This document shows, one piece after another, positions 5,494 through 54,797 of a stretch of DNA of 64,000 nucleotides. How positions within the stretch are numbered: position 1 is the first letter of the stretch; each line of letters starts with the position of its first letter. Origin of the DNA: Candidatus Eiseniibacteriota bacterium (GTDB taxonomy: Bacteria; Eisenbacteria; RBG-16-71-46); NCBI GenBank assembly GCA_038231135.1, contig JBBRLX010000006.1, positions 20,161 to 84,160 on the forward strand, written 5' to 3'. The notes beneath the pieces are model-generated. The model worked only from the letters and a program-made list of their open reading frames with translations, had not been told where the DNA came from and did no database searches. The position numbers and the translations under genes were made by a program.

Positions 5494-6440
<947 letters not shown>

Positions 6441-6444
<4 letters not shown>

Positions 6445-10600: not shown

Positions 10601-11584
10601 TCGCTGAACACGTCGGTGGCGGTGTTCGACCACGACCGGCTGGGGAACAAGCTGGTGCCGACGGGGGTGTGGTCGGCGGGCATGAACGCGAGCGCGTCGT
10701 TCTACGGCACGTTCACGCCGCACCTGGGTGCGCTCGACGCGTTCCGTCACGTGGTGTTCCCCAGCGTGACGCTGCAGTACAGCCCGGATTTCAAGAACCT
10801 GCTGATCGCGGGCCCGAACGGCACCGAGCAGGAGCGGTTCGAGAGCTTCGGCGGCATCGGCGTGTCGGGCGCCAAGCAGTTCCAGCTCGCGCTCGGACTC
10901 GACCAGCGGCTGCAGGTGAAGCTCCGCCACAAGGACCAGATCACGCGCATCGACAACCTGCTGGCGTGGAGCATGTCGAGCAACTACGACTTCCTGTGGG
11001 CGGAGCACGGGGCCAGGCACCCGCTGACTCCGATCGGCTCGGCGGTCACGTTCCAGCCGCCCAAGTACTTCAACGCTTCGATGAACTTCACCACCGACCC
11101 CTACAACGGCCGCCCGCTGCGGTCGCTCACGTACTACCTGGGCCTCAATCTGTCGAGCAGTGGCGCGCGGCGCGACGATGCGCCCGGCCTCGCGGTCGAG
11201 CGCAGCTCGAACGAGGTCGAGGCGTTCCACGACAACTGGAACGTGGGGCTCACGTATTCCTATTCCGGCGGCTACCCCGGCGACCTGCCCGGCAAGGCGA
11301 GCCCGTTGTGGACGACGACGCGCAACGCGAACGCCGTGACGAGCTATCAGTTCAGTCCGGCGTGGGGCGTCGAGTATTCGGCGTCGTTCGACCTCACCCT
11401 GCGGCAGATCGGCACGCAGCGGTTCTCGCTCACCCGCGATCTGCATTGCTGGGAGGCGACGTTCTCGCGCACGTTCACAGCGGGCGGCGAGGCCGAGTAC
11501 TACTTCCGGCTCGGCGTGAAGGAGCAGAAGGAGATCTACATCGAGCGCGGCACGCGCTCGGGCAGCCTGGGCGGGATCCAGTGA
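7694..11584 (+). CDS. lptD: LPS-assembly outer-membrane protein LptD (OstA) with long Pro/Ala-rich N-terminal extension
   Basis: GTG at 7694 overlaps the folC stop. There is a signal peptide and an approx. 170-aa low-complexity segment. OstA-like N-terminal domains follow (GDVILLNGNVRI..., LRLQGNVVVTD), then a C-terminal LptD beta-barrel region (FASRWMKIYLKDKLVAKPVVFYVKHVPLLALPFWVFP). The track ORF 6386..11584 is rejected upstream of 7694 because it overlaps folC out of frame. Confidence 0.8.
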   Translation: MRRVWLALAIAIASAAGAAGAAPAVPAAPTPWPIEVTPIVPSRVTQPSDTAGAAARHQAAATSRASDAGRSIAPTAGAGAHDGAEPANRTPAPPGFGAAFDSTRGSHPGTPGTAIVVARDSGAVVPPAAAGIGTPPRAVRPPASAPARPAGPTPPLNIAADNVTGSHGPEGDVILLNGNVRITRMRSVITSDHGRYLRSEGMLYLEQNVKLVDSTTTMTCNQASYSENDDMLRLQGNVVVTDHDATLRAPWATYDRRIGRAELFGGVDAHDKHETMRADSALYLRDSLLLKARGHVRGIDKDNKLELTARAVDWDRDARDAIAWGDPQLVSHEDQGHDTVIRARTLRVNTDTRVAEAVDSVTIVRDTLQARADYGQFDDLANYAILTGHPRAWDQETVVTGDTLEMWTDGHHLQRVVVERNAVMDYAGREPLTLGEKSRLSGDQVTVYFTDDDIDSLVSVGKAHNDYTAVPRPGKASETNLAQGDTITVFFLKRKIDRARVEGKASGEYQFAVAKGDTAAAADERVRYDARTIEYQVSRNRIVLDPGAHLTYRDLELTARRVEFDLNRQTLVAEGKPELVEHGDKVTGNLMTYDLESRVGNIYKAETEYEAGLYHGERIRKVSDKELDVMNGSYSTCNLPEPHYHFASRWMKIYLKDKLVAKPVVFYVKHVPLLALPFWVFPLKPGRHSGFMLPTFQLGFSNRAGQFFRNAGYYWAPNDYMDLTVDGDYYAAEPSWVVRTEGNYKLMYVLDGTFNGSFARDEGIKTENWDFDADHTQELTPRSRLVARASFVSSRDYNSSNLFGRSLSQRLNRFLTSSVAISHNADWASFNNFVERRQDLDADLELDDPDGAGPGRSKPVGTRASQFNLTESLPSLDMSFPTRTAGSLGFLRGTPFEKALSTMYLSMSARFLSLHTQRAFVEARLPTAADTTQDSLLVLGQEQNTRRGFQTDASVSDARRAFGWLNLRPSLNTSVAVFDHDRLGNKLVPTGVWSAGMNASASFYGTFTPHLGALDAFRHVVFPSVTLQYSPDFKNLLIAGPNGTEQERFESFGGIGVSGAKQFQLALGLDQRLQVKLRHKDQITRIDNLLAWSMSSNYDFLWAEHGARHPLTPIGSAVTFQPPKYFNASMNFTTDPYNGRPLRSLTYYLGLNLSSSGARRDDAPGLAVERSSNEVEAFHDNWNVGLTYSYSGGYPGDLPGKASPLWTTTRNANAVTSYQFSPAWGVEYSASFDLTLRQIGTQRFSLTRDLHCWEATFSRTFTAGGEAEYYFRLGVKEQKEIYIERGTRSGSLGGIQ

Positions 11585-13354: not shown

Positions 13355-14779
13355 ATGAAGTCTCTTACCACCCGAATTCTTGCTGCTGCCGTGGTCGCCG
13401 TCGTGAGCTGGCTCGTGCTCGCCTCCGCCGCCGCGCCCCACTCGCTACAGCCGAACAAACTGGTCATCCTCTCGACAACGGACGTCAAGGGCAAGACCAG
13501 CCCCTGTGGCTGACACACGCCCAAGGGGGGTCTGGCCCGGCGGGCCAGTTTCGCAGACAGCGTAAAGCTCCAGTACAGCAACGTGCTGCTGGTCGATGCC
13601 GGAGGGTTCTTCCCCGAAGGCGCCACCGAGTACGACGTGGCGTGGTTCATGATGGACGCCATGAAGCTGCTCGGCACCGACGGCGTCGGCGTGGGTGAGC
13701 GCGACCTCAAGTACGGGCTCGCGTGGCTCAAGGGGCAGCAGAAGCGCACCGGACTCCCGATCGTGTCGGCGAACCTGCTCGACAAGAAGACCGGCAGGCC
13801 GGTGTTCGCGCCGTTCGTGATCAAGCGGGTCGGCACCGCGAAGGTGGGCATCTTCGGGCTGATCAGTGACAAGGTCGACCTCGGGCCGGCGCGGGATTCG
13901 CTCACCGCCCAGGACCCGATGGTGGCGGCGAAGAAGGCGATCGCCGACATGCACAAGGCCGGGGCGACGGTGATCGTGCTGCTGTCCCAGCTGGGCAAGG
14001 TCGAGAGCGAGGACCTCGTCACTGCGGTGGACGGCGTCGACGTTGTGATCGCGGGCCGCAACGTGCCGCTGATCCAGAAGGGCCGGCTGATCAAGAACAC
14101 GGTCGTGGCGTACGGCGGCGAGCAGGGCCAGTACGTCGGCCGCACGATCATCACGCTCGGGCCCGGCGGCAAGGCGACGGCCGGGGACGACGACATGTTC
14201 ATCCTGAGCCCCGAAGTCGGCGAGAAGCCCGAAGTGCTCGCGCTGGTCAAGAGCTTCGAGGACGCCTACAACGAGAAGCTGCGCAAGGGCCAGATGGATT
14301 CCGAGGCGTCGAAGGCGGTGGCGCAGGAGAACAATCCCGACCGCTACCTCGGAGCCGAGTTGTGCACGCGCTGCCATTCGTCCGAAGGTGAACAGTGGAA
14401 GACCACCGCGCATTCGCTGGCGTGGCAGACGCTGGTGAACGTGAAGAAGGACGCGACGCCCGAGTGCATCGGCTGCCATTCGGTCGGCTTCAACAAGTCG
14501 GGCGGCTTCACGAGCGCGACGGCGACGCCGCACCTCGAGAACGTGCAGTGCGAGAACTGCCACGGCATCGGCACCCAGCACGACTCGTTCGCGGCCACGC
14601 CGCACCCGGTGACGGCCGAGGTGTGCCAGACCTGCCACCATGGCGATAACGATCCCGACTTCAACTTTGCGAAGTACCTGCCGAAGATCGCGCACAGCAA
14701 CCTGTCCGGCGAGACGATCAAGAACATGAAGAACAAGATGTCGCCGGGAATGATGAAGGGGAGCGGCGGCACGAACTGA
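13355..14779 (+). CDS. Secreted degenerate 5'-nucleotidase/metallophosphatase-like domain fused to tetrahaem cytochrome c; contains one in-frame TGA (13511-13513), candidate selenocysteine or pseudogene
   Basis: ATG at 13355 with a signal peptide (MKSLTTRILAAAVVAVVSWLVLASAAAP), then LVILSTTDVKGKTSPCG-[TGA]-HTPKGGLARR...NVLLVDAGGFF. This resembles the start of the 5'-nucleotidase N-domain with metal ligands substituted. The C-terminus has four CxxCH motifs (CTRCH, CIGCH, CENCH, CQTCH). The segments 13355-13510 and 13514-14779 share a frame and are separated by a single TGA. Confidence 0.5.
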
Positions 14780-17953: not shown

Positions 17954-18039
17954 GTCCCCGTCCGGGGCCGGTTCGTGCCCCTGTCCCGAAACCCTGGGCC
18001 CCTCCCGTCCGTATGTCCTGCACAGAGGAGGAATTCCCG

Positions 18040-19104
18040 GTGAGGAACATACGGCTGGCGGTGCTGGTTCTGGCGGTTCTCGGGGTGCTCCCCCGCATGG
18101 CGGGGGCCGAGACCCGGCAGGAGCAGAGCACCCTCGACATCCCGGTGGCCGGCATCCGGTCGCTGCGGGTCGAGAATGGCCGGGGGCTCGTCACCGTGTC
18201 CCGCGGCGCCGGATCCCGGATCCACCTCACCGCCCTCAAGATCGTGCGCTCCCGGGACGACGCGTGGGCCCGCCGGGTGGCGCGGCAGACCCAGGTCGAA
18301 ACGGACATGAGGGGCGGCGAGTATGAGATTCGGGTCGTGTATCCTCAGCGCCAGGCGATCCGGGTGCGGTTCTGGGACCTGTTCTCGGACTTCGAATTCC
18401 CCAACATCGAGGTGCGGCTGGCGATCGAAGTGCCCGACGGGCTGCCGCTGACGCTCGAATCCACGAGCGGTGACCTGATCTCCTCGGGGGTGCGCGCGAC
18501 CCAGGTGCTGGAATCGACGAGCGGCGACGTCACGGTGACCGGTGCGGCCACCGTGAACGCGTCCAGCACCAGCGGCGACGTGCACATCTCGGATGCCGGC
18601 CCGTCACGCGTCCGCACCGTGAGCGGCGACCTCGTGGCCCAGCGCATGCGCGGCCCGCTGGCGGCAAGCACCACGAGCGGCGACGTGCGGGTGAGCGAGA
18701 GCGCGGACTCGCTCGTCCTCGCCACGGTGAGCGGGGACATCACGGTGGACGCGGCGCCCCGCGGGCTCGAGCTGTCCACGACCAGCGGCACCGTGGACGT
18801 GCGACGCGCGTCGGGCATCGTCCGCGTGCAGAGCACCAGCGGAGACGCGGCGCTGGGATTCGTCGCGCCGGTCCGTCGCACGCAGATCGTCACCGGCAAC
18901 GGCGACGTGCGCCTCCGGTTCGCCCCGGCGCTCGCGTACTCGCTCGATCTCGCCACATCGAGCGGCGAGATCCAGGTCGAGGTTCCGCTCGACGTCGAGA
19001 ACGTCACGCGCCACAGACTCACGGGAGTCGTGCGGCACGGCGCCACGCCGATCGTCGTGCACACGGTATCGGGAGACATCAGCATCGCGGAGGGGGCACG
19101 ATGA
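18040..19104 (+). CDS. DUF4097-type beta-helical 'putative adhesin' family secreted protein (TSGD repeats)
   Basis: RBS gaggagg precedes the GTG. Signal peptide. Repeated (S/T)(S/T)SGD(V/L)xV units, typical of the YvlB/DUF4097 family. Confidence 0.65.
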   Translation: MRNIRLAVLVLAVLGVLPRMAGAETRQEQSTLDIPVAGIRSLRVENGRGLVTVSRGAGSRIHLTALKIVRSRDDAWARRVARQTQVETDMRGGEYEIRVVYPQRQAIRVRFWDLFSDFEFPNIEVRLAIEVPDGLPLTLESTSGDLISSGVRATQVLESTSGDVTVTGAATVNASSTSGDVHISDAGPSRVRTVSGDLVAQRMRGPLAASTTSGDVRVSESADSLVLATVSGDITVDAAPRGLELSTTSGTVDVRRASGIVRVQSTSGDAALGFVAPVRRTQIVTGNGDVRLRFAPALAYSLDLATSSGEIQVEVPLDVENVTRHRLTGVVRHGATPIVVHTVSGDISIAEGAR

Positions 19105-20849
19105 ACAGGAAGCCACGGCTATGGGAGGCGCTGCTCGCGGCGGCGCTGGTGGGAGTGGTGGTGTGGGGAGTCGCGGGTTCGTTCGTGGTGCCCCTGGGCC
19201 GCGCGGCGTGCGGTGGCCCCGCGTGGGTCGTGAACGGTCTCCCGCTGCGCCGGGAAGCGCGCGTGCTGTCGCAGGTGCGGCGGCAGGCACTGTGGGCGCT
19301 CGGCCACTGGAGCGCGCCGCCGGCGTCCGCGGACGTGCTGCCGTTCAAGCCGGTGCCGCCCGAGAGCGTGTCGCAGTTCGAGCGGCGCACGCGGACGCGG
19401 ATGCACGGACATCGGGCGCCGGCCACTCCGCCCGCGCCCGACGCCGTCGCCGCGCCCGACGCGCCCGATGCTCCCGACGAGCCGGACACGCCCGACTCGA
19501 TCACGACGCCGCTGCCGCCGTCGCCGCCCGGCAAGTCCGGCAACATCACCCGGCTGGGCTCCGACATCTACATCGCGCCCGACCAGGTCGTGGTGGGCGA
19601 CGTGGTCGCGGTCGGCGGCGACGTCACGGTCGCAGGGCACGTCGAGGGTGACGTGGCCTCGATGGGCGGCGACGTGTCGCTCAAGGCCACCGCGCGCGTG
19701 GACGGCGACGTGGTATCGATGGGCGGCCGGCTGCTCGAGGAACCGGGTGCGTCCGTGGGCGGCCAGCGCGTGAGCGGGCTCGGCTCGCACCGCACGCGGA
19801 TCCGGCAGGTGACGAGCCACATGGTGGAGCGTGGCACGGGCAGGTTCGTGGCCTCGCTGATCTGGCTGCTGATACTGCTCGGGCTCGCGTGGGGGTTCAC
19901 CCGGCTGGGCCCGGGACGCACCCGCGACGCCGCCGACACCCTGCGGCGTGAGCCCGCGGTATCGCTCGGCGTGGGCGCCCTGATCTTCGCGCTGATCGTG
20001 CCGTCGGTGGTGGCGCTGGCGCTGGTGGTCGCGATCCTGTGCATCACGATCATCGGGATTCCGTTCGGCCTCGCGGCGCTGCTGGCGTACGCCATGTTCC
20101 TGTGCCTGTTATGGGGCTGGGGATTCGTGATCGCCGCGGTGGTCATCGGCCAGACCATACTGGGCCGCACCGGCGCTCATCCTCATCTGTCGGGCTACGG
20201 CGCGGTGCCGCCGGGCGGTACCGGAGCCCCCGCGCCGTACGCGCCGGCACCGGGCTATGCTCCGGCACCCGGGTACGCCGCCACGCCAGGCTACGCTCCC
20301 GCGCCCGGTGCTCCCGGTGTCCCCGGCATGGCACCGTGGATCCCCGCGCCGCCGTCGCTCACGCGATGCGCGGTGGTGGGTATCCTGTTCCTTGGCGCGT
20401 CCAACCTGCTGGGCCGCATGTTCCAGGCGATCGGGCCGCTGCACGCCCTGGGGACGCTGATCCACGTGCTGGCGTCCATCGCCGGCCTGGTGGCGATCAC
20501 GTTCGGCTCGGGGGCGTGGCTGCGCACCGAGATTCGCGCCGGCACGGTGGCGCGCTGGTGGCGCGGCAGCCAGTGGGGCCGCGGCTCGTCCGGCCCGGTG
20601 CCGCCGGTGGGCGGCGTCCCGCCCGGAGCCGCACCCGCGTCCGCGGCGGGCGCCGCCTATGGGGCGAATCCCTACGCCAGCTCGGCGTCGACTCCGGCTG
20701 CGGCTCCCTATGCGGCTCCCGGACCGCCGCCGTCCGGCGGCTCGGGATGGGAAACCCCATCCGCGCCTCCGCCACCGCCGCCGTCGGCCTACATGCCGCC
20801 GCGGCCGCCCGAGCCACCGGAGCCGCCGCCCTCGGCCCCGGTCGCCTGA
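19101..20849 (+). CDS. Membrane protein with GDV-repeat beta-helical (bactofilin/DUF4097-like) periplasmic segment, polytopic TM region and Pro-rich C-terminus
   Basis: ATGA overlap with the upstream gene. Shows GDVVAVGGDVTVAGHVEGDVASMGGDVSL, four or more TM helices, tandem PAPGYA repeats and a C-terminal PPPPPS tract. Confidence 0.6.
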   Translation: MNRKPRLWEALLAAALVGVVVWGVAGSFVVPLGRAACGGPAWVVNGLPLRREARVLSQVRRQALWALGHWSAPPASADVLPFKPVPPESVSQFERRTRTRMHGHRAPATPPAPDAVAAPDAPDAPDEPDTPDSITTPLPPSPPGKSGNITRLGSDIYIAPDQVVVGDVVAVGGDVTVAGHVEGDVASMGGDVSLKATARVDGDVVSMGGRLLEEPGASVGGQRVSGLGSHRTRIRQVTSHMVERGTGRFVASLIWLLILLGLAWGFTRLGPGRTRDAADTLRREPAVSLGVGALIFALIVPSVVALALVVAILCITIIGIPFGLAALLAYAMFLCLLWGWGFVIAAVVIGQTILGRTGAHPHLSGYGAVPPGGTGAPAPYAPAPGYAPAPGYAATPGYAPAPGAPGVPGMAPWIPAPPSLTRCAVVGILFLGASNLLGRMFQAIGPLHALGTLIHVLASIAGLVAITFGSGAWLRTEIRAGTVARWWRGSQWGRGSSGPVPPVGGVPPGAAPASAAGAAYGANPYASSASTPAAAPYAAPGPPPSGGSGWETPSAPPPPPPSAYMPPRPPEPPEPPPSAPVA

Positions 20850-20938
20850 GACGGCGCACCCGAATTCGTACCCGCGCCCGGGATCCCCTAGGATCCCGGG
20901 CGCTTCGACTTGCCGGGAGGTGATCGATCGAGAGTTCG

Positions 20939-22963
20939 CTGCTCGTCCAGGGTCGCGCCGCCGGCGCCTCCTTTGCAGAACCGCCCGCCGCCATCGGCGT
21001 CGACACCGGCGGCACGTTCACGGACTTCGTGGCCGTGCTGGGCCGGCGCCTGGTGGTGTTCAAGCTGCCGTCCACGCCCTCGGGCCCGGACCGCGCCGTG
21101 ATCGCGGGGCTCGACCGGTTGCGCGCCGCGCGCTCGACCCGGGTGCGCCACGGCTCCACCGTCGCCACGAACGCGTTGCTCGAGCGCCGCGGCGCCCGTG
21201 TGGTGTTCGTCACCACCGCGGGGTTCGAGGACCTGCTCGAGATCGGCCGCCAGGAGCGGCCCGACATCTACGCGCTCACGCCGCGGCGGGAGCCGCCGCT
21301 GGTGCCGGCGAGGCGGCGGCTCGGTGTGCGGGAACGCACGGGTCCGCGCGGCGAGCGCCTGCTGCGGCTGTCGGCGGCGGAGCGGTCGCGCGTGCGCCGC
21401 GCGGTCGCGCGGGCGCGGCCGGAGGCGATCGCGATCGGGCTGCTGCATTCCTACGCCGATCCCGCACACGAGCGGGCGCTGGCACGCGAGCTGCGCGGTC
21501 TGGGGGTGCCGGTCACCTGCTCCTCCGAGCTGTGTCCCGAGATCCGTGAATACGAGCGGTTCGCCACCACGGTGGTGAACGCGTGGCTGGCCCCGCGCGT
21601 CGGCCGCTATCTGGCGGCTGTGGCGCGGCGCGCGGGACCGGCGTTCGAGGTCGTGCTGTCGCACGGTGGCACCGCGCCCGCGGCGGTCGCGGCGCGCGAG
21701 CCGGCGAAGCAACTGCTGTCGGGTCCGGCGGCGGGGGTCCGCGCCGCCCGCGACGCGGCGCGCGCCTGCGGCTTCGCGGCCGCGCTCACGCTGGACGTCG
21801 GCGGCACATCGACCGACTGCGCCTACGTCGGCCGCGAGTTGCCGCGCCGGCGCGCCCGCATGGTGGCCGGGATCCCGATTCAGCTGCCGATGCTCGACGT
21901 GCATACGATCGGCGCGGGCGGCGGCTCGGTGGCGCGCGTCGACGCGGGCGGGCTGCTGCACGTCGGGCCGGACAGCGCCGGGGCCGATCCCGGGCCCGCG
22001 TGCTACGGGCGGGGCGGACCCCCCACCGTCACGGACGCGCTGGTGGTGCTCGGCCGGCTGCCGGCGCGGGCTCTCGCCGGCGGCACGTTTCCGATCGATG
22101 CGGGCGCGGCGCGGGCGGCGATGGCGCAGCTCGCGCGGTCGCTCGGCCATCGCGACGCGCTGCGCGCCGCCGCCGGCGTCGCGACGCTCGCCGAGTCGCA
22201 CATGGGGGCGGCGCTGCGGCGCGTGTCGGTCGAGCGCGGCCACGATCCGCGCGGCGCCGCCCTGGTGTGCTTCGGCGGCGCGGGCGGGCTGTTCGCCTGC
22301 GCGCTCGCGGCGGAGCTGGGGACGGCGGTGGTGTTCCCGCGCCACGCCGGCGTGCTGTCGGCGCTGGGGGCGCTGACCGGCGGCTCGCGGCGCGAGAAGA
22401 GCCGCTCGGTGCTGCTCGACGCCGGCGACCGCCCGCGCATCGCCCGCGTGCTCGCGGCGCTCGAGGCGGCGGCGCGCCGCGAGTTCGCGCCGGCGCTGCG
22501 CGGGCGCGCGACCGTGGAGCGCTGGGCCGAGGCGCGCTACCGCGGCCAGGCGCACGAGCTCCCGATTCCCGCCGCCGGCGACCTCGCGCGCCGGTTCCAT
22601 GCCGCGCACGAGCACCGCTATGGCTTCGCCGATCCCGCGGCGCCGGTCGAGATCGTGACGCTCGAGGCGCGGGTGTCGGTGGCCGGCGAGCGGCTGCCGG
22701 CGATGCGGCCGGCGCCGCGCCGCGGACCGCGGCCGCCGGGCAGCGTCACCGTCCGCCACGCGGGACGCGACATCAGGGCCCTGGTGTGGGACGCCGCCCA
22801 GCTCGGCCGCGGGGCGCGCGTGGCCGGCCCGGCGGTGGTGGTGGAGGACGGCGCGACGCTGTGGGTGGTGCCCGGGTGGTCGGGCACGCGCCACGCGAGC
22901 GGCGCCCTGGTGCTCGTGCCCGGAAGGCTGCGCGCCGCGCCGCGACGCCGGGGGCCGCGATGA
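20939..22963 (+). CDS. hyuA: Hydantoinase/oxoprolinase family subunit A (HyuA-like)
   Basis: The conserved N-terminal IGVDTGGTFTDFV is encoded at 20993-21031, upstream of the track start 21029 (GTG). The true start is uncertain (possibly the CTG at 20939). Also DVGGTSTD and the rest of the HyuA fold. Confidence 0.75.
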   Translation: MLVQGRAAGASFAEPPAAIGVDTGGTFTDFVAVLGRRLVVFKLPSTPSGPDRAVIAGLDRLRAARSTRVRHGSTVATNALLERRGARVVFVTTAGFEDLLEIGRQERPDIYALTPRREPPLVPARRRLGVRERTGPRGERLLRLSAAERSRVRRAVARARPEAIAIGLLHSYADPAHERALARELRGLGVPVTCSSELCPEIREYERFATTVVNAWLAPRVGRYLAAVARRAGPAFEVVLSHGGTAPAAVAAREPAKQLLSGPAAGVRAARDAARACGFAAALTLDVGGTSTDCAYVGRELPRRRARMVAGIPIQLPMLDVHTIGAGGGSVARVDAGGLLHVGPDSAGADPGPACYGRGGPPTVTDALVVLGRLPARALAGGTFPIDAGAARAAMAQLARSLGHRDALRAAAGVATLAESHMGAALRRVSVERGHDPRGAALVCFGGAGGLFACALAAELGTAVVFPRHAGVLSALGALTGGSRREKSRSVLLDAGDRPRIARVLAALEAAARREFAPALRGRATVERWAEARYRGQAHELPIPAAGDLARRFHAAHEHRYGFADPAAPVEIVTLEARVSVAGERLPAMRPAPRRGPRPPGSVTVRHAGRDIRALVWDAAQLGRGARVAGPAVVVEDGATLWVVPGWSGTRHASGALVLVPGRLRAAPRRRGPR

Positions 22964-24606
22964 CCGCCGCGTTCGACGGCGCGCGGCTCGCGCTGTTCCA
23001 GGCGCGGTTCGCCGCGTGCGCCGAGGAGATGGGCGTGACGCTGATGCGCACCGCGCATTCGCCGAACATCACCGAGCGCCTCGACCACTCGTGCGCGGTG
23101 TTCGACGGCCGTGGCCGGCTCATCGCCCAGGCCGCGCACATTCCCGTGCATCTCGGCAGCATGCCGCGCGCGGTCGAGGTGGTGCTCGAGCGCTCGACGC
23201 TATTGCCCGGCGACGTGGTGATGCTCAACGATCCGTTCGCCGGCGGCACGCACCTGCCGGACGTTACGCTGGTTTCGCCGGTGTTCGCCGGTTCCGCGCC
23301 CGGCCGCGGCGGCCCGCGGCGGCCCGATTACTTCGTCGCGAGCCGCGCGCACCACGCCGACATCGGCGGCGCGGCGCCCGGGTCGATGCCCCTCGCGCGC
23401 GAAGTCTACGAGGAGGGCCTCCGTATCCCGCCCGTGCACCTGGTGCGCGGCGGCGACGTCCAGGCGGACGTGCTCGCGATCGTGCTCGCGAACGTGCGGA
23501 CGGCGCGCGAACGCCATGCCGACCTGATGGCGCAGGCCGGCGCCCAGACCACCGGCATAAGGCGGCTGGAGGCGCTGATCGCGTCCCACGGCACGGCGAC
23601 GCTGAATCGTGCGGCGGAGGCGCTGATGCGTCACGCCGCGCGCAGCGTGCTCGCCGCCGTGCGGACCCTGCCGCGGGGGACGTTCCGCTTCGAGGACGTG
23701 CTCGACGACGACGGGCTCGGCCACGGGCCGATCCCGATCCGCGCCGCGGTGACGCTCGGGGCCCGAGGCGTGACCGTCGACTTCACCGGCTCGAGCCCGC
23801 AGACGGCCGGGCCGGTGAACGCCGTCGCCGCCGTCACCCGCGCGGCCGCGACCTACGCGGTGAGGATCGTGCTGGGCGGCGAGCTGCCGATCAACCACGG
23901 CACCCTGGAGGCCATCCGCGTGATCGCGCCGCCCGGCACCGTGGTGAATCCGCTGCCGCCGGCCGCGGTCGCCGCGGGCAACGTCGAGACCTCGCAGCGC
24001 ATCGTCGACGTCGTGCTGGGCGCGCTGGCGCGCGCGCTGCCCCATCGTGTGCCGGCGGCGAGCAGCGGCACCATGAACAACCTGCTGATCGGCGGCCGCG
24101 ATCCGCAAGCCGGCCCGTTCGCATACTACGAGACGCTGGCCGGCGGCCATGGCGCGGGCCCGGGCGGGGATGGCGCGTCGGCGATGCAGGCGCACATGAC
24201 GAACACCCGCAACACGCCGGTCGAGAGCCTGGAGCACGCGTATCCCCTGCGCGTCCGCTCCACGCGCGTGCGGCGTGGCAGCGGGGGCCTGGGCCGGCAT
24301 CGCGGCGGCGACGGCATCGAGCGTGCGCTCGAGCTCATGGCCCCGGCGCGCGTCACCGTGATCTCGGAGCGGCGGCTGCGCGGCCCGTGGGGGCTCGCCG
24401 GCGGCCGGCCGGGAGCGCCGGGCCGGAACACCGTGCGCGAGTCGCCCGGCGCCCGCGCGCGCCGGATGCCCGGGAAGTTCGTGGTCGATCTCGCGGCGGG
24501 CGCCGTGCTCACGGTGACGAGCCCCGGCGGCGGCGGCTACGGGCGACCGGGCTTCGCCGCATCGCGCGCGAAGCGCCGGGTCGCGCGTCGCGCTCCGCAG
24601 CGGTAG
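22960..24606 (+). CDS. hyuB: Hydantoinase/oxoprolinase family subunit B (HyuB-like)
   Basis: ATGA overlap with hyuA. MTAAFDGARLALFQARFAACAEEMGVTLMRTAHSPNI..NDPFAGGTHLPD is HyuB-like. The track ORF is rejected upstream of 22960. Confidence 0.85.
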   Translation: MTAAFDGARLALFQARFAACAEEMGVTLMRTAHSPNITERLDHSCAVFDGRGRLIAQAAHIPVHLGSMPRAVEVVLERSTLLPGDVVMLNDPFAGGTHLPDVTLVSPVFAGSAPGRGGPRRPDYFVASRAHHADIGGAAPGSMPLAREVYEEGLRIPPVHLVRGGDVQADVLAIVLANVRTARERHADLMAQAGAQTTGIRRLEALIASHGTATLNRAAEALMRHAARSVLAAVRTLPRGTFRFEDVLDDDGLGHGPIPIRAAVTLGARGVTVDFTGSSPQTAGPVNAVAAVTRAAATYAVRIVLGGELPINHGTLEAIRVIAPPGTVVNPLPPAAVAAGNVETSQRIVDVVLGALARALPHRVPAASSGTMNNLLIGGRDPQAGPFAYYETLAGGHGAGPGGDGASAMQAHMTNTRNTPVESLEHAYPLRVRSTRVRRGSGGLGRHRGGDGIERALELMAPARVTVISERRLRGPWGLAGGRPGAPGRNTVRESPGARARRMPGKFVVDLAAGAVLTVTSPGGGGYGRPGFAASRAKRRVARRAPQR

Positions 24607-24709
24607 AGTGCGCGGTCGAGCAGGCCGCGGCTCGCCGCCCGCGCGCCGGCATTTCGAAGGTAACGCATCATGGGGCGCCGGACGTGGCACCCCGCTCTCC
24701 GGAGGTACG

Positions 24710-25927
24710 ATGCATCGCGCCATACGTGCCGTCGTGCTGCTGCTCCTCGTCGCTCCGCTGGCCTCGCTATTCGGCTCGCGTGCCGCGCACACCCTGCCGC
24801 TCTACGCCGCGCGCACTGGCTACATGTGCCAGCAGTGCCATTTCGATCCCAACGGCGGCGGGCCCCGCAACGACTTCGGGTTCATGTTCGCGCGCAACCG
24901 CCACAGCACGGATGCCGACACCACGGGCGCGTGGAAGGATCTCAACCTCACGAACAGGATCGGCGACACCATGCCGGTCTACTTCGGCGTCAATCAGCGG
25001 TTCATGCTGCTGACGGGCACCTCGACCCACTCCGACTCGCTCGATCGGTTCGCGTTCTTCGGCATGGAGAACAGCCTCCACATCACGTTCCAGCCCCACG
25101 AGAAGCTCACGCTCGTATACAGCCGGGATGCGTTCGCGATCGACGCCTCGAACGCCAGCGTCGAGCAGAAGGAGGCGTTCGGCATCCTCCACTTCAACGA
25201 CACTCATTACGTGAAGATCGGCCGGTTCCGCAATCCGTTCGGCCTGCGCATGGACGACCACACGGTGGCGACGCGCAACGGGTTCCTCGACCTGAGCAGT
25301 GGCCAGGGGTTCCTGCCGTACGATCCGCGATATCCGGACATGGGTGTCGAGGTCGGCGGCGCGCGCGGGCCGTTCTTCGGCCGAGTCGCGTTCACGAACG
25401 GCCATGCGAACTTCTCGAACGGGTTCGCGGAGACCAAGGCCATCAAGCTCGGCTACAACAGCTCGTTCTATCAGGGCGGCGTGTCGTTCTACGACGAATA
25501 TCAGAAGGTGCCGGTGACCAACCTGAAACGTTCGACGCGCTGGGGCTACTACGCGCTCGGCCACCATGGCCCGGTCGCGCTGGTCGGCGAGATCGCGGCG
25601 GGCACGGACGAGGCGTTGCCGGTGCTGCCCGGCGCCGTGACGGGAGCGAAGACCAACCTGCTCGCCGGATTCGCCGAGCTCGACTGGGCGGCCGGCCGCT
25701 CGGTGAACTTCCGGGCGCGCTACGACTACCTGAACCCCGATCGCAGCAGCATCCAGGTGATCCGGGACCTGAACTCGCACCAGCGCTACGCGCTCGAGAG
25801 CGAGTGGGTGCCGGTGCCGTTCGCGGAACTGCGGTTCGCGGTGCGCCGCATCCAACACCAGGACGAGGCCGCGTTCGGCTTCAAGGACGAGACGCAGTTC
25901 TTCACCCAGGCGCACTTCTCGTACTGA
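24710..25927 (+). CDS. Cyc2-like fused monohaem cytochrome c / outer-membrane beta-barrel porin
   Basis: RBS ggaggt. Signal peptide. A single CxxCH (YMCQQCH) lies about 15 aa into the mature protein. Then about 380 aa with alternating amphipathic beta-strand character, ending in ...AHFSY, a typical aromatic C-terminus for an outer-membrane protein. Confidence 0.6.
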   Translation: MHRAIRAVVLLLLVAPLASLFGSRAAHTLPLYAARTGYMCQQCHFDPNGGGPRNDFGFMFARNRHSTDADTTGAWKDLNLTNRIGDTMPVYFGVNQRFMLLTGTSTHSDSLDRFAFFGMENSLHITFQPHEKLTLVYSRDAFAIDASNASVEQKEAFGILHFNDTHYVKIGRFRNPFGLRMDDHTVATRNGFLDLSSGQGFLPYDPRYPDMGVEVGGARGPFFGRVAFTNGHANFSNGFAETKAIKLGYNSSFYQGGVSFYDEYQKVPVTNLKRSTRWGYYALGHHGPVALVGEIAAGTDEALPVLPGAVTGAKTNLLAGFAELDWAAGRSVNFRARYDYLNPDRSSIQVIRDLNSHQRYALESEWVPVPFAELRFAVRRIQHQDEAAFGFKDETQFFTQAHFSY

Positions 25928-25983
25928 GTGGACGCCCCGGTGTCACGCGCGAGGCGCCCGTCCGCGGGCGCCTCGCAGGCGTG

Positions 25984-27471
25984 TCAGCGGCGCAGCGCCG
26001 CCAGCCGCCGGGTGACGACGCGCTGCGTCAGCGGCGTGCGGTCGGCGGCGGACAGCGTGAGCGCCGCCTCGGGGACCTCATCGAGGAACGCGTCGTTCTG
26101 AAGACCCACCACGATCGTGGGTCGCTCGCGGCACGCGGCGCGCAGCGCCTCGACGCGCGCGGCCTCGAGCGGCAGCCGCGTGGCGACCACCGCCACCCGC
26201 GCCGTGGCGAGCGCCGGGTCCTCGGTGAGCGGCACGCCCGCGTCCGCGAACGCGCGCAGCAGCGGAGTCTCGCCCGGCGGCTCGGCCGGCGTGATGCCGC
26301 GCGCCGCCAGCTCGGCCGCCAGCGGGGGCAGCGTGTCGGGCCCGAAGTTCACCACCTGCCACGGGCCGTTGACCGCGCCCCCGGGCAGCGAACCCCGCAC
26401 GATCAGCGCGCGATCGACGATCGCCTCTAGTCGCGGCTCCCAGTCGGCCGGCGTGAGCGCCGCGAGCGGCGCCGCGAGCTCGGCGGCGGTGGGCTCGGGA
26501 TGCGCGCGGTCCAGCGCCGCGAGCCGCGGGCGCGCGGCGTCGAAGTTGTCGCGCTCGAGCGTGCCGTCGGTGATCGCGCGCGCCAGCTCCAGCCGCACGC
26601 GGCGCAGCTCGTCGTCGTGGAATGCGAACAGCAGCAGGTCGGCGCCGGCCTCGAGCGCGCGCCGCGCCGCCGCGGCCGGCGCCGCATCGCCGGTCGCGCC
26701 CTTCATCTCGAGCGCATCGGTGATGCTGACGCCCGGAAAGCCCAGCCGGTCGCGCAGCAGATCGTGCGTGATCGCGCGCGAGAACGTCGCCGGGCTCGCG
26801 GCATCGAGCGCGCGGTAGAGCACGTGCGCGGTCATCACGGCATCGGCGTCGAGGTGGGCCGCGAACGGCGCCAGCTCGCGCTGTTCGAGCTGCGCGCGCG
26901 ACGCCTCGCTCACCGGCAGCGACAGGTGCGAATCCGTGCGCGTGTCGCCGTGCCCGGGGAAATGCTTGAGACACGCCGCCACGCCCGCGGCGCGGTAGCC
27001 GCGCAGCAGCTCGCCCACGCGCGCCGTCACGTCGGCCGCGGTCATGCCCCATGCGCGCGGCCCGATCACCGGATTGAGCGGCTCGGAATGGATGTCGGCG
27101 ACCGGCGCGAACACCCAGTCGAGCCCGAGCGCCCGCAGCCGGGCGCCGGTCACGCGCGCGATCCATTCGAGATCGCCGGGCCCGGCGCCGCGTCCCAGCG
27201 TGAGCGCGTTCGGTGGCACCGTCAGGTGCCCGGCGAGCTGCGATACGTGGCCGCCCTCCTCGTCGATCGCGAGGAACAGCCGGCGCGGCTTCGCCAGCTC
27301 GCGCAGGTGGGCCGTGAGCCGCCGCAGGCCGTCCAGGTCCTGGAAGTCGCGGCGGAACACGATCACGCCCGCCGGGGGATAGGCAGCGAAGTCGCGCTCC
27401 CACGCGGGCGTGGGCCCGCCCAGGGGAATGCCGATCATCATCCGGCGCGCGATGCCGCGTTGTGCGTCCAT
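25984..27471 (-). CDS. nagZ: Beta-N-acetylhexosaminidase (GH3)
   Basis: GH3 motifs: LFLAIDEEGG, KHFPGHGDT, SITDALEM. Start chosen at MDAQRG (27471). The track ORF extends to 27627. Confidence 0.8.
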   Translation of the reverse strand: MDAQRGIARRMMIGIPLGGPTPAWERDFAAYPPAGVIVFRRDFQDLDGLRRLTAHLRELAKPRRLFLAIDEEGGHVSQLAGHLTVPPNALTLGRGAGPGDLEWIARVTGARLRALGLDWVFAPVADIHSEPLNPVIGPRAWGMTAADVTARVGELLRGYRAAGVAACLKHFPGHGDTRTDSHLSLPVSEASRAQLEQRELAPFAAHLDADAVMTAHVLYRALDAASPATFSRAITHDLLRDRLGFPGVSITDALEMKGATGDAAPAAAARRALEAGADLLLFAFHDDELRRVRLELARAITDGTLERDNFDAARPRLAALDRAHPEPTAAELAAPLAALTPADWEPRLEAIVDRALIVRGSLPGGAVNGPWQVVNFGPDTLPPLAAELAARGITPAEPPGETPLLRAFADAGVPLTEDPALATARVAVVATRLPLEAARVEALRAACRERPTIVVGLQNDAFLDEVPEAALTLSAADRTPLTQRVVTRRLAALRR

Positions 27472-27687
27472 GGCGGCAACCTGCGGAAGCGTTGCGCGAG
27501 TGTCAAGCATCGGCCCGCAACGACGGGCCTGGGACCCGCTCGGGCCGCCCGTTCCCACGCTGGTAAAGATACACTCGCCTGGCGCGTCGCGAGACCCGAC
27601 ACTATGACTGTGCACCCTGAAGCCCAAGTTGACCGGGATCTTGCAAAACGCACGTTGGGGCGGCGCTCCGGCCCGCGCTACACTGGC

Positions 27688-28869
27688 ATGATGAAGAACC
27701 CCGTCTCCCGGCGCAGCCTGCGGTTCACCGAGTCCGTGATCCGCGAAATGACGCGGCTATGCGCGCGCTACGATGGGGTCAATCTGGCCCAGGGCTTCCC
27801 GGATTTCGCGGCTCCCGAGGTCCTCAAGGAGGCCGCGGCACGGGCAGTGCTAGAAGACCACAACCAATACGCGATCACGTGGGGCGCCAAGCGCCTGCGG
27901 GACGCGATCGTGGCCAAGACCCTGCGGTTTCAGGGCCTCGGCTACGAACCCGAGACCGAGTTGACAGTGTGCTGCGGGGCGACCGAGTGCATGGCGTCGA
28001 CGATGCTGGCGCTGGTCGATCCGGGCGACGAAGTCATCGTGTTCGAACCGTTCTACGAGAACTACGGTCCGGATGCGATCCTGTGCGAAGCACAGCCGCG
28101 GTTCGTGCGGCTGCGGGAGCCCGACTGGGTCTACGACCCGGCCGAGCTCGAAGCGGCGTTCTCGAACCGGACGCGCGCGATCGTCATCAATACACCCAAC
28201 AATCCGACCGGCAAGGTGTTCAGCCGGGATGAACTCGAGCACATCGCCGCGCTGTGCCGGAAGTGGGATGTGATCGCGATCACGGACGAGATCTACGAGC
28301 ACATTCTCTACGATGGCGCGGAGCACGTGCCGCTCGCGTCGCTGGACGGAATGCGGGAGCGCACGGTGACGATCAGCGGCATGTCGAAGACATACAGCGT
28401 AACCGGATGGCGGATCGGCTGGTGCCTCGCGGCGCCGGCGCTGACGGGCGCGATCCGCAAGGTCCACGACTTCCTCACCGTGGGTGCTCCGGCGCCGCTG
28501 CAGGAGGCGGCTTCCGTGGCGCTCGAGCTGCCCGACGATTACTACCGCGGCCTCGCCGATCGCTATCGCGAGCGGCGCGAGTTCCTGGTGCCCGCGCTCG
28601 AAGCGGCGGGGTTCCGCGCGTTCCGTCCGCGTGGCGCGTATTACGTGATGACGGACATTTCGGAGTTCGGGTTCGACAACGATGTCGAGTTCGCGCGCCA
28701 CCTGGTGGAAACGGTGGGCGTGGCCGCGGTGCCGGGGTCGAGCTTCTATTCGGATCCAGGCTCGGGACGCCACCGGTTGCGGTTCCATTTCGCTCGCCGG
28801 CGCGAAACACTCGAAAACGCTGCGGAACGGCTCGGCCGCCTCGCGGCCCGTTCCAGTACTGCTCACTAA
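27688..28869 (+). CDS. Class I/II PLP-dependent aminotransferase (methionine/kynurenine aminotransferase-like)
   Basis: Shows GFPDF, NTPNNPTG and SGMSKTYSVTGWRIGW (the PLP lysine). Start ATGATG at 27688. Confidence 0.85.
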   Translation: MMKNPVSRRSLRFTESVIREMTRLCARYDGVNLAQGFPDFAAPEVLKEAAARAVLEDHNQYAITWGAKRLRDAIVAKTLRFQGLGYEPETELTVCCGATECMASTMLALVDPGDEVIVFEPFYENYGPDAILCEAQPRFVRLREPDWVYDPAELEAAFSNRTRAIVINTPNNPTGKVFSRDELEHIAALCRKWDVIAITDEIYEHILYDGAEHVPLASLDGMRERTVTISGMSKTYSVTGWRIGWCLAAPALTGAIRKVHDFLTVGAPAPLQEAASVALELPDDYYRGLADRYRERREFLVPALEAAGFRAFRPRGAYYVMTDISEFGFDNDVEFARHLVETVGVAAVPGSSFYSDPGSGRHRLRFHFARRRETLENAAERLGRLAARSSTAH

Positions 28870-39302: not shown

Positions 39303-40231
39303 GCACCGTACCCGCCACCGCCGCGAGCCCGCCGCTCGCGGTGCGCACGCTCGAACGCTGCCTGGTGTGCGGGAGTGCGAGGCTCCTGCCGCTCGGGATG
39401 GCCTACGAGTTCCGCGGCCGGCGCTTTCCCGCCGTGCGGTGCCACGAGTGCGGGATGCGGTTCCTCGCCGTCCAGCCCGCTCCCGAGGCGTTCGCGGAAC
39501 TCTACGGCGCCGAGTACTTCGAGACCGATTTTCGCTGCGGCCGCAGCGACGCCCATTCGTTCGCCGAGGCCGCGTTCCGGGCCGAGAACGCCGGGTTGCT
39601 CGACGAGTTCGCGAAGCTCGGGCCCCCGGGCCGGCTGCTCGAGGTGGGCAGCGCGAGCGGCTGGCTGCTGCGCCACGCCGCGGAGCGTGGCTGGCAGGCG
39701 CGCGGCGTCGAGCTGTCCGGGGAGGCGGTCGCACATTCGCGCTCGATTGGCGCCGAGGTGTTCCATGGCGATCTGCTTGCCGCGCAGTTCCCGGCGGCGT
39801 CGTTTGACCTGATCTACCTGGGCGACGTGCTCGAGCACGTGCCCGACTGCCGTTCTGTGATGGCGGAGGTCGCTCGCCTGCTGGCGCCGGGCGGGCAGCT
39901 CTACCTGCGCGGGCCGATCACCACGAACTCGCTGGCCCGCCGGCTCGCGCTCGCGGCCATGGCGGCGACCGGCCGCACGATCGTGCTGCGCGAGCCGCCG
40001 TACCACCTGTGGGAGTTCACGCCGGCATCGCTGCGCCGGCTGGTGGCGGACTGCGGGCTCGAACTCGTTGCGATGCGCCAGAGCAAGATTCCCGCGGGGC
40101 GGCCGCACGGCACGAAGTCGGCGCCCGAGCGCCTGGCGCTCCGCGTGTTCGACGCCGTGAACGTCCCGATCACCCGCACGTTCCGCGTGTTCGGCGATCG
40201 CGTGGTGATGATCGCCCGCCAGCCGCGCTGA
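39299..40231 (+). CDS. Class I SAM-dependent methyltransferase
   Basis: GTG overlaps the mnmA stop. An N-terminal Cys4 Zn-ribbon-like region (CLVCGS...CHECG) plus a Rossmann MTase (LLEVGSASGW...LGDVLEHV). Confidence 0.65.
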   Translation: MSTVPATAASPPLAVRTLERCLVCGSARLLPLGMAYEFRGRRFPAVRCHECGMRFLAVQPAPEAFAELYGAEYFETDFRCGRSDAHSFAEAAFRAENAGLLDEFAKLGPPGRLLEVGSASGWLLRHAAERGWQARGVELSGEAVAHSRSIGAEVFHGDLLAAQFPAASFDLIYLGDVLEHVPDCRSVMAEVARLLAPGGQLYLRGPITTNSLARRLALAAMAATGRTIVLREPPYHLWEFTPASLRRLVADCGLELVAMRQSKIPAGRPHGTKSAPERLALRVFDAVNVPITRTFRVFGDRVVMIARQPR

Positions 40232-40340
40232 TCCGCGATTCCTGGGCCGGTTTTTCCGCTGGACCTGGGGCCTAAGAGATGCGTAAGTTCCGGGCGCACA
40301 GGACACTTCGGCCTTCGATCCCCTAAGAGGAGGATGAGCC

Positions 40341-40958
40341 ATGCGATGGACGCGTGTGGTGGCAGCATGCGGGACCCTCGGCGCGATCGGCGCAATCGCG
40401 TTCGTGAGTTCGTGCGCCCAGAAGACCAGCGAAACCGCGTCCACCGGCACGGCGGGGAGTGCCATGACGATGGACCAGCGGCTCGAGCACGGGCGGCGGC
40501 TGGCGTTGTCGAGCGGCTGCGTCGACTGTCACACCCCGGGCTCCCTGTATGGCACGCCGGATACCACGCGCATGCTGTCCGGGAGCGAACTCGGCTGGCA
40601 GGGTCCGTGGGGTGTGTCGTATCCGCGCAACCTCACTCCCGATTCCACGACCGGCCTCGGCACATGGACCGAGGATCAGATCGTGACGGCGTTCACCACC
40701 GGCCATCGGCCCGACGGTACCGTGCTGCTGCCGCCGATGCCGTGGCCCGGCTTCGGGGCCGGCTTCACGCCCGATGACGCCCACGCGCTGGCCGCCTATC
40801 TCAAGTCGATCCCGGCCGTGCATCATCAGATGCCTGCGGTCATGCCGCCGGGCAAGCCCGTCAAGGGCCCGGTGATGATCTTCCCGCCGCCTCCGGCATG
40901 GGACGCGCAGAATCTGCCGCCGCCTCCTGGCGCACCGGCGGCCGCGGGCGCGCACTAA
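40341..40958 (+). CDS. Monohaem c-type cytochrome lipoprotein
   Basis: RBS aggagga. Lipobox FVSSC. A single CVDCH haem motif. Confidence 0.7.
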   Translation: MRWTRVVAACGTLGAIGAIAFVSSCAQKTSETASTGTAGSAMTMDQRLEHGRRLALSSGCVDCHTPGSLYGTPDTTRMLSGSELGWQGPWGVSYPRNLTPDSTTGLGTWTEDQIVTAFTTGHRPDGTVLLPPMPWPGFGAGFTPDDAHALAAYLKSIPAVHHQMPAVMPPGKPVKGPVMIFPPPPAWDAQNLPPPPGAPAAAGAH

Positions 40959-54116: not shown

Positions 54117-54202
54117 CGGAGGGATGGCCGAGTGGTTTAAGGCGCCGGTCTTGAAAACCGGAGGACGAAAGTCCCGTGGGTTCGAATCCTACTCCCTCCG
54201 CC
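54117..54202 (+). tRNA. tRNA-Ser (anticodon UGA), type II with long variable arm
   Basis: Acceptor GGAGGGA/TCCCTCC. D-loop GCCGAGTGGTTtAAGGC. Anticodon loop CT-TGA-AA. T-loop GGTTCGAATCC. G discriminator plus an encoded CCA. Confidence 0.85.
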
Positions 54203-54596
54203 ACTCTCTCTCGGCGATTCGTGGGGCGCCCCAGGACCAAAGGCGAAGCCTGATCCCTCAACCCCTCGAGGAACCAGGCTCGCCTCCCCACCGTGGATCC
54301 GTGTCGCCTCCAACGAGCGGCTCTAAGTGGCGAGCGTCCTGAAGGGCGATCACAAGATCGGCAGGATATCTGTTGCTCTGGCTGGTGATGTCGTTTGCCC
54401 GATCACCGGCGAGCACAGTTAGATGCACGCGTGGGCAGTCGATTCATGGATTTCTTCGGGTCCTTCCGGCTTGGATCGGCGCGCGCAGCGTTCCTGGGTG
54501 ACGCGGGTTCGGACGCGCGGAAATGCCCGTTTGGACGCGCGCGGCCGATCGGCTAAAGTGCTCCGTCGCAAGGCAGATGAGACTGCGGTTCGGTGC

Positions 54597-54641
54597 CCGC
54601 TCCAAGGTCCGTTTCACCGGGTTCGAATCCACTCCCTCCGC
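54597..54641 (+). other. Degenerate direct repeat of the 3' approx. 45 nt of tRNA-Ser(UGA) (tRNA fragment / putative att-site remnant)
   Basis: ...caccgggttcgaatccactccctccgcc against the 3' end of the tRNA, ...cccgtgggttcgaatcctactccctccgcca. There is no 5' half, D-arm or anticodon arm, so it is not a functional tRNA. Confidence 0.5.
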
Positions 54642-54653
54642 CGCACAGATTTT

Positions 54654-54745: not shown

Positions 54746-54797
54746 GACCCGTCGAACCTGCTCGGCCGCCCCCAGGCCCGCAGCCCCGTTTCAAGGC

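Follow-up and report, generated by a model that had tools for sequence, protein, structure and literature searches.

A fused cytochrome-porin gene in an Eisenbacteria contig

The subject of this study is a gene in a 64,000-nucleotide stretch of contig JBBRLX010000006.1 (Candidatus Eiseniibacteriota bacterium, assembly GCA_038231135.1), hereafter called the window. In an original prediction made from the letters alone, this gene had been described as encoding a fused monohaem cytochrome-porin similar to Cyc2, located downstream of the hydantoinase genes hyuAB. The position relative to hyuAB is correct, as the gene begins 103 nt 3' of hyuB and as hyuA and hyuB are both recognized by Pfam. The features of the gene and of its product are compiled in Table 1. 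Homologues align from the same methionine in an alignment of 20 sequences with 53-70% identity (alignment A1), so the ATG at 24710 is the start, and an identical protein (P0001) with the same neighbouring genes is called on two other, independent assemblies. With 405 residues, the protein is longer than the minimum of 365 residues that is used for Cyc2. When it was compared with Pfam and NCBIfam, there was no match at E<=1 except a spurious one of 12 bits, and no cytochrome domain was recognized.

The N-terminus (MHRAIRAVVLLLLVAPLASLFGSRAA) has a basic n-region that is followed by a core of hydrophobic residues (Kyte-Doolittle value of about 3 for residues 4-17), and the same region forms a helix (residues 2-22) in an AlphaFold2 model. 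These properties bear out the signal peptide that had been proposed, and the protein is thus predicted to be exported, which is one of the criteria by which Cyc2 proteins are recognized. With a cleavage after Ala25, Cys40 of the haem motif would become residue 15 of the mature protein, exactly where it had been expected. The long C-terminal part that had been described is present as well, but it comprises about 360 residues after the haem motif and not about 380. Its aromatic ending also holds beyond this one protein, as the terminal Q-x-H-F-S-Y is conserved in alignment A1.

Table 1. Features of the cytochrome-porin gene, and a candidate partner gene, in the window.
Feature	Coordinates	Strand	Basis
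Fused monohaem cytochrome-porin gene, complete (405 codons + stop)	24710..25927	+	Uninterrupted translation; homologues align end to end
Shine-Dalgarno-like GGAGG, 4 nt 5' of ATG	24701..24705	+	Sequence read directly
Sec-type signal peptide, residues 1-25, probable cleavage after S-R-A	24710..24784	+	Composition; helix in model
Haem-binding peptide, residues 29-60, LPLYAARTGYMCQQCHFDPNGGGPRNDFGFMF, homologous to the Cyc2 cytochrome region	24794..24889	+	Invariant block in alignment A1; hhalign
CxxCH (CQQCH, residues 40-44), haem attachment; His44 the probable proximal ligand from c-type chemistry	24827..24841	+	Sequence; 214/214 relatives
16-stranded beta-barrel porin domain, residues 83-405; lumen/loop motifs GRFRxPFGLRxDDHT (residues 171-185) and His402	24956..25924	+	
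C-terminal beta-signal-like strand end, residues 400-405 (Q-A-H-F-S-Y), aromatic last residue	25907..25924	+	Alignment A1
Monohaem class I cytochrome c, lipoprotein-type signal (…AFVSSC), CVDCH; candidate partner only	40341..40958	+	Pfam Cytochrom_C, 23.7 bits

Conservation of the haem-binding peptide

The protein contains exactly one CxxCH. In alignment A1, Cys40, Cys43 and His44 are invariant, and the haem motif is surrounded by the likewise invariant block CxxCHFDPNGGGPRNxFG. A large protein collection contained 544 relatives at E<=0.001, all of them about 400 residues long and all annotated as hypothetical. A loss of the motif in homologues, which had been named as one of two observations that would speak against the original prediction, was found in none of 214 full-length relatives, as CxxCH is invariant and occupies the same position in 121 of 121 close and in 93 of 93 distant ones. 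On the basis of this invariance, a chance occurrence of the motif is excluded. A profile search of 1.84 billion representatives extended the family to a superfamily of at least 1,159 clusters (50% identity, E<=0.001) with the signature P-x-[FY]-[AS]-x-R-x-G-x-x-CxxCH-[VI]-[ND]-P-x-G-G-G-x-R-[NT]. In distant relatives, the positions P30, G37, C40, C43, H44, G49, G50, R53 and G57 are 87-100% conserved, and for Gly49, Gly50 and Arg53 the conservation is 98-100%.

Some members of the superfamily carry two CxxCH motifs (P0165, P0193, P0205, P0231, P0245, P0251, P0253 and P0267, with lengths of about 400-620 residues). These proteins arise by a tandem duplication of the whole N-terminal haem peptide and would be dihaem cytochrome-porins. 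A hybrid haem peptide (FARKTGHDCSYCHLNPAGGGELT) is encoded on the minus strand of NZ_PPFX01000016.1 from Geothermobacter hydrogeniphilus HR-1 (locus L118). It joins the upstream motif of the Cyc2 type to the downstream NPxGGG motif. The protein that begins with this peptide is not a porin; transmembrane helices are predicted in it, and its C-terminal segment resembles cytochrome b5. This combination points to the haem peptide as a module that can be passed between proteins.

The barrel domain

The AlphaFold2 model (pLDDT 70, pTM 0.71) has 16 long strands in the region of residues 90-404, and in a comparison that covered PDB fold libraries, the best structural matches were 16-stranded porins, with OprP at the top, together with OprO. 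Both the strand count and the modelled structure, by which the predicted beta-barrel was to be checked, are therefore in its favour. This relationship can be seen at the level of the fold only: the Pfam profile Porin_O_P does not match the protein, and no match was found among PDB sequences. OprO and OprP are also the fold templates that have been reported for Cyc2 (PMC8406198). No solved structure of Cyc2 was found in PDB sequence searches with the target protein and with an Acidithiobacillus Cyc2, combined with a literature search. A residue of potential functional relevance is His402 on the last strand, which is conserved in 99% of the close and 87% of the distant relatives and which is a candidate for a distal haem ligand or for a residue of a haem pocket.

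Homology to Cyc2

As a basis for the comparison with Cyc2, 185,579 reference genomes were scanned with the back-translated motif FAR[QK][TY]GxxCxxCH, which gave at least 120 loci, where about 4 would be expected by chance according to our own estimate from the information content. The G-x-x spacing in this pattern was our assumption, and the result of the scan validated it. The loci listed include Mariprofundus, Zetaproteobacteria, Sideroxydans, Gallionella, Acidithiobacillus, Ralstonia, and many Acidobacteriota and Gemmatimonadota. A reference set of 88 complete Cyc2 proteins was taken from these listed loci, and its consensus reads A-x-P-x-F-A-R-[QK]-[TY]-G-x-x-CxxCH-x-x-x-P-x-L-[NT]-x-F-G-R-x-F-K.

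An ad hoc hidden Markov model (HMM) of the 88 sequences gave 23.2 bits with the target protein (E 1.8e-9 for this one comparison, in two collinear segments), a score that stands for homology and says nothing of passing the FeGenie cut-offs for Cyc2. With 500 shuffled versions of the target, the same HMM reached a maximum of 10.1 bits, and with members of the target family it reached up to 54.5 bits. In the reverse direction, an HMM of the target family matched all 88 Cyc2 proteins, with a median of 26 bits and a best score of 76.5 bits. The profile-profile alignment of the two families by hhalign had a probability of 98.4% over the full length (E 7e-15, 323 columns) and of 97.1% for the N-terminal haem peptide alone (E 6e-11). 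Even a plain BLASTP comparison with a Cyc2 that carries the canonical motif (L072) aligned 360 collinear residues with 21% identity (E 5e-4). On these comparisons, Cyc2 and the target family are homologous, and the signal comes mainly from the haem (cytochrome) peptide, as it does in Cyc2 generally.

Departure from canonical Cyc2

Keffer et al. 2021 (PMC8406198) characterized Cyc2 by the motif AxPxFAR[Q/K][T/Y] upstream of CxxCH, by PxL four residues downstream of it, by a 16-strand porin and by a length of at least 365 residues. They called the upstream motif unique to Cyc2 and removed sequences without it from their tree. The upstream region of the target protein, T-L-P-L-Y-A-A-R-T-G-Y-M-CQQCH, deviates from the strict AxPxFAR[QK][TY], and downstream of the haem motif it has H-F-D-P-N-G-G-G-P-R-N and no PxL. 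The same applies to its relatives: the strict PxFAR[QK][TY] is absent from all 121 close and all 93 distant ones and present in 86 of the 88 Cyc2 proteins, and for PxL the corresponding numbers are 0 of 121, 0 of 93 and 74 of 88. Conversely, CxxCHxxPxGGGxR occurs in 119 of the 121 close and in 61 of the 93 distant relatives, and in none of the 88 Cyc2 proteins. Only a relaxed form of the upstream motif, P-x-[FY]-[AST]-x-[RQK]-[TYEQ]-G-x-x-CxxCH, is found in the target and in 93 of the 121 close relatives. As both defining motifs that were tested fail, the family is not canonical Cyc2. The Cyc2 architecture that had originally been claimed thus stands with regard to the signal peptide, the single N-terminal CxxCH and the 16-strand porin, and it is backed by homology, but the identification as a canonical Cyc2 does not stand.

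In a rough neighbour-joining tree, one branch splits all 106 sampled members of the family from all 88 Cyc2 proteins; both sets were picked by their own signature, and as intermediates are missed by such a choice, the separation of the clades may be overstated, which is a point against the view taken here. In the same tree, the target family and canonical Cyc2 are internally about equally diverse. Judged from motifs and profiles, the target family is a divergent sister clade of Cyc2 that is homologous to it and shares a Cyc2-like architecture, without being a canonical member. The haem peptide of this clade can be described by the signature P-x-[FY]-A-x-R-x-G-x-x-CxxCH-x-[DN]-P-x-G-G-G-x-R-[NT]. 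The family is spread in bacteria of the FCB group (Eisenbacteria, Ignavibacteria, Bacteroidota), and the distant branch of the superfamily consists mostly of proteins of Ignavibacteria and Bacteroidota, all annotated as hypothetical.

The filter of the published Cyc2 phylogeny would exclude the family, because PxFAR[QK][TY] and PxL are lacking. Metagenome-assembled genomes from vents have already yielded Cyc2 homologues of phyla that are putatively heterotrophic, Eisenbacteria among them (PMC9769843), and the setting in an otherwise heterotroph-looking region, which had been presented as a surprise, is therefore less surprising than it seemed. That study accepted only sequences whose N-termini resemble those of verified iron oxidizers, and for this reason the NPxGGGxR clade was probably left out of its set. 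We found no description of this clade in the searchable literature.

Gene neighbourhood in the Eisenbacteria lineage

The gene order hyuA-hyuB-target-GH3-aminotransferase-CtpA is retained in three relatives with 55-60% identity, and the conserved block as a whole comprises genes for a PALP/CBS protein, a DUF4097 protein, a bactofilin-like protein, in some cases a VTT-domain protein, hyuA, hyuB, the target, a GH3 glycosidase (minus strand), an aminotransferase and an S41 protease. The neighbourhood of hyuAB is lost in P0130, a member of the same clade with 39% identity. Because the whole block is kept in close relatives and lost in a divergent member, the adjacency to hyuAB is best seen as synteny of a lineage, probably that of Eisenbacteria, within a housekeeping region, with no evidence of a functional link. 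Little weight can thus be given to the argument that such a gene would not be expected beside hydantoinase genes. The long contigs that carry homologues of the target also carry MnmA homologues. Most of the named MnmA relatives, with 71-77% identity, belong to Candidatus Eisenbacteria, and a soil bacterium similar to this taxon is the most likely source of the window.

A scan of positions 20800-27700 for promoters and terminators found none, and such a scan is insensitive in DNA of 70% GC from a non-model phylum. Rfam recognized three tRNAs in the window, clustered at 54118-54871 on the plus strand, as its sole matches, and no regulatory RNA near the gene. Upstream of hyuAB, the plus-strand genes at 18013-19104 and 19101-20849 overlap by 4 nt and encode a DUF4097 "toastrack" protein and a 582-residue protein with a weak bactofilin match; this pair is kept upstream of hyuAB in relatives. 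In the relatives, a VTT-domain gene lies between the pair and hyuA, and none is called in the window. The plus-strand open reading frame (ORF) 6386-11584 is unusually long, with 1,732 codons as called, and has LptD/OstA domains only in the C-terminal two thirds. No domain was assigned to the N-terminal 600 or so residues, and its start may be over-extended.

Redox proteins near divergent relatives and in the window

In more divergent relatives, the neighbouring genes are of a different kind. P0130, in which CHFDPNGGGPRN is the same, has two small CxxCH proteins as its neighbours: a lipoprotein of 149 residues encoded 3' of it and a cytochrome c of 149 residues on the opposite strand. In addition, genes for a cbb3 oxidase (CcoNO, CcoP) are found about 4 kb away. 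The gene of P0200 is followed on its 3' side by two c-type cytochromes and a b562, the gene of P0229 lies between an NrfD/Fe-S module and genes for a YceI protein and a dihaem protein, and that of P0253 has small CxxCH lipoproteins on its flanks. The downstream proteins of three independent loci are mutually homologous (E 1e-10 to 1e-13), and the neighbouring cytochromes pair between loci (E 1e-15 to 1e-17). From this mutual homology of neighbours at independent loci, it follows that the wider superfamily has a candidate recurrent module of periplasmic cytochrome partners.

The conserved lipoprotein of these loci has a motif similar to (V/I)QPIF..C..CH that is reminiscent of cytochrome domains of the planctomycete type (L135:8167-8616, L127:3086-4765, L126:1306-2205, and L131:6088-6426 on the minus strand). 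Small cytochromes c adjoin it, and the one at L135:8675-9124 matches the one at L127:4758-5321 with E 1e-15.

Four ORFs of the window with at least 80 residues and a coding-like GC content at third codon positions carry CxxCH. One of them, 53196-53999 on the minus strand, was rejected as a cytochrome, being a cytoplasmic GT2 glycosyltransferase. The cytochrome at 40341-40958, which had been proposed as a redox partner, is indeed a cytochrome c of the lipoprotein type, but neither this protein nor the one encoded at 13583-14779 has significant similarity to the cytochromes that flank the relatives. The gene at 40341-40958 encodes a proline-rich C-terminal tail and overlaps a minus-strand ORF at 39901-40395. 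The protein encoded at 13583-14779 is a second c-type cytochrome of the window, a tetrahaem protein similar to c554, and likewise a possible partner. A longer plus-strand ORF, 13355-14779, begins with a signal peptide (MKSLTTRILAAAVV...) and reads in frame into this c554-like ORF (4 CxxCH; PF13435), and it is broken by an in-frame TGA at 13511-13513 (Cys-Gly-*-His). About 16 nt 3' of this TGA lies a GC-rich hairpin, which folds no better than shuffled sequences (z 0.06). The TGA could be explained by recoding to selenocysteine, by an error of sequencing or by the ORF being a pseudogene.

Proposed function and alternatives

What could such a protein do? We consider it reasonably probable that it is an outer membrane porin with a fused haem peptide, homologous to Cyc2, that passes single electrons across the outer membrane. 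In this proposal, the protein would be exported by Sec, Cys40 and Cys43 would receive the haem in the periplasm, where His44 would serve as its ligand, and the barrel would enter the outer membrane by means of the C-terminal aromatic signal. With about 35 residues, the haem peptide does not have the length for an independent cytochrome fold. It is therefore probably located inside the barrel or at its opening, where barrel residues would complete the haem pocket; candidates for such residues are the conserved His402, Met119 and those of the DDHT loop. Single electrons would then pass between small, soluble, extracellular redox species that enter the pore and a c-type cytochrome of the periplasm. 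By analogy with Cyc2, Fe2+ would be the leading candidate for such a species. The data show the architecture, the fold, the conservation of the haem motif, the homology to Cyc2, the failure of its canonical motifs and the conserved synteny, whereas haem loading and haem position, like the substrate, the partners and the direction in which electrons would flow, are inferred. Extracellular Fe(II) oxidation or electron uptake, as named in the original prediction, is plausible from the sequence relationships. The homology and the gene context in relatives make extracellular electron transfer a reasonable suggestion, while support within the window itself is lacking.

Several observations weigh against an electron-conducting, Cyc2-like protein. 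Both published signature motifs of Cyc2 are missing, which bars a simple transfer of function. The barrel alone is aligned to Cyc2 by hhalign only weakly, with a probability of 42% and E 2.6e-4 (E 0.34 in the control with a reversed profile). The haem-peptide region of the AlphaFold2 model has a pLDDT below 50, and a placement of the haem inside the barrel is conjecture. Keffer et al. pointed out that the function of Cyc2 is unverified in organisms that are not known to oxidize iron, and that other functions are possible (PMC8406198). The genes that flank the target encode HyuAB, a GH3 glycosidase, an aminotransferase and a protease, and no redox partner adjoins it. In the 64-kb window there is no terminal oxidase, so that the oxidase partners that were to be looked for are missing from it, and tblastn found no homologue of the conserved partner module there.

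Within the favoured electron-conduit function, Fe(II) oxidation would be the leading specific task, which we hold at well below an even chance. In its strict form, a narrower version of the same explanation, dissolved Fe2+ would be oxidized at the outer membrane and a cytochrome c of the periplasm would hand the electrons on to a terminal oxidase or to the reduction of nitrate, which could provide a heterotroph with extra energy (mixotrophy) or serve the detoxification of Fe(II). The homology to Cyc2 and the identical architecture argue for it, as does the location of P0130, in the same clade, near a cytochrome c and a cbb3 oxidase. Exactly these two components are the partners in the pathway model for neutrophilic Cyc2. 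All three published Cyc2 clusters also have representatives with Fe(II) oxidation (PMC8406198). We nevertheless hold the strict form to be tentative, as the family lacks the canonical motifs and branches outside all sampled Cyc2 proteins that have them, as the window contains no oxidase or partner, and as the clade is found mostly in organotrophic lineages of the FCB group and has no characterized member. Alternatively, the protein could conduct electrons for a purpose other than iron oxidation: it might, for example, deliver them outward to Fe(III), to humics or to another soluble acceptor, sense redox conditions at the cell surface, or have a protective, peroxidase-like function. The gene is inherited vertically, syntenic and strongly conserved (55-70% identity where MnmA has 71-83%), and such inheritance fits a housekeeping function more readily than a lithotrophic module that is optional; in published trees of Cyc2, horizontal transfer is frequent (PMC12442345). 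One distant relative adjoins a YHS domain protein and a b562, another one YceI and an NrfD/Fe-S module, which would also be in line with other roles. As all characterized homologues are Fe(II) oxidases and these roles have no direct support, we regard this alternative as rather unlikely.

Much less can be said in favour of two further explanations. The protein could be a partner of the hyuAB hydantoinase/oxoprolinase genes, for example a pore for substrate uptake, with the adjacency reflecting an operon. In four independent genomes, the gene indeed shares its strand with hyuB and follows it at a distance of 14-103 nt, or of about 700 nt in one relative, and no terminator-like site was found between hyuB and the target in the scan, whose low sensitivity has been mentioned. 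However, about 17 kb of unrelated housekeeping genes are syntenic as well, so the adjacency is not specific, P0130, P0128, P0200, P0216, P0229 and P0253 do not have hyuAB as neighbours, and it is not obvious what an invariant haem site would contribute to the import of hydantoins or oxoproline. An operon with hyuAB was largely rejected on this synteny evidence, and the idea is very improbable. It is even harder to believe that the protein is an ordinary porin whose CxxCH forms a disulfide or a metal site or is there by chance. While the fold matches are ordinary porins and Pfam and NCBIfam recognize no cytochrome domain, the motif is invariant in 214 of 214 relatives within a longer conserved block, this block is homologous to the haem peptide of Cyc2, a protein for which haem binding has been shown spectroscopically (PMC8406198), and the dihaem variants duplicate the entire peptide.

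Implications

When iron oxidation by microbes is inferred from genomic or metagenomic data, Cyc2 is the main genetic marker. The target family is a large homologous clade in which haem site and 16-strand pore are both retained and which nevertheless fails the motif filter. This could mean that surveys undercount electron exchangers of the outer membrane, or else that proteins of the Cyc2 architecture may have tasks beyond the oxidation of iron. In either case, the reading of Cyc2-like matches in soil heterotrophs would change. If it is true that the family exchanges electrons with Fe(II) or other extracellular species, many "heterotrophs" of soils and sediments would possess an overlooked capacity for extracellular electron transfer. 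The clade is tractable, with GGG-R in place of PxL, a conserved C-terminal His as possible distal ligand and, in some branches, a conserved partner gene. For the window itself, the conclusion is modest, as the gene alone is no proof of iron oxidation by its organism. What is new here, judged from sequence comparisons, is the divergent sister clade of Cyc2, while the occurrence of Cyc2 homologues in Eisenbacteria was known before (PMC9769843). Going further, one may tentatively propose, at less than even odds, a second, unrecognized "NPxGGGxR" family of fused monohaem cytochrome-porins that has its own lipoprotein-cytochrome partner module and that is a core-region gene in Eisenbacteria.

Comparison with known systems

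Among characterized systems that move electrons across the outer membrane by means of a barrel and c-type haem are the porin-cytochrome complexes MtrAB, MtoAB and PioAB. These combine a 26-strand barrel of the MtrB/PioB/MtoB type with a separate decahaem cytochrome, and the target protein does not fit this type. With the porins OprP and OprO (PDB 2o4v, 4rjw), the likeness is in the fold alone, as the sequence identity is only 10-12%, and these porins are without the haem-binding peptide that the target protein has.

By far the closest known system is Cyc2. In Cyc2 as in the target protein, a signal peptide is followed by CxxCH and then by an OprO/OprP-like porin of about 400 residues with 16 strands, and the single CxxCH lies about 12-15 residues into the mature protein, as known from A. 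ferrooxidans Cyc2, Mariprofundus Cyc2PV-1 and Leptospirillum Cyt572. Canonical Cyc2 sequences carry A-x-A directly before the conserved Pro, and the S-R-A of the target protein gives a similar cleavage context. Both share the upstream register P-x-[FY]-A-x-[RQK]-[TY]-G-x-x-CxxCH and, downstream, N-x-F-G-x-x-F, which in the target protein is preceded by an insertion of three residues. The differences begin with this insertion, as the target family has [DN]-P-x-G-G-G-x-R-[NT], which includes the three residues, where Cyc2 has PxL. The family also has a His three residues from the C-terminus, for which no counterpart was seen in four Cyc2 C-termini. Finally, the lineage of the target differs from Cyc2 by a vertical inheritance of the gene in a housekeeping block, with no cytochrome or oxidase next to it.

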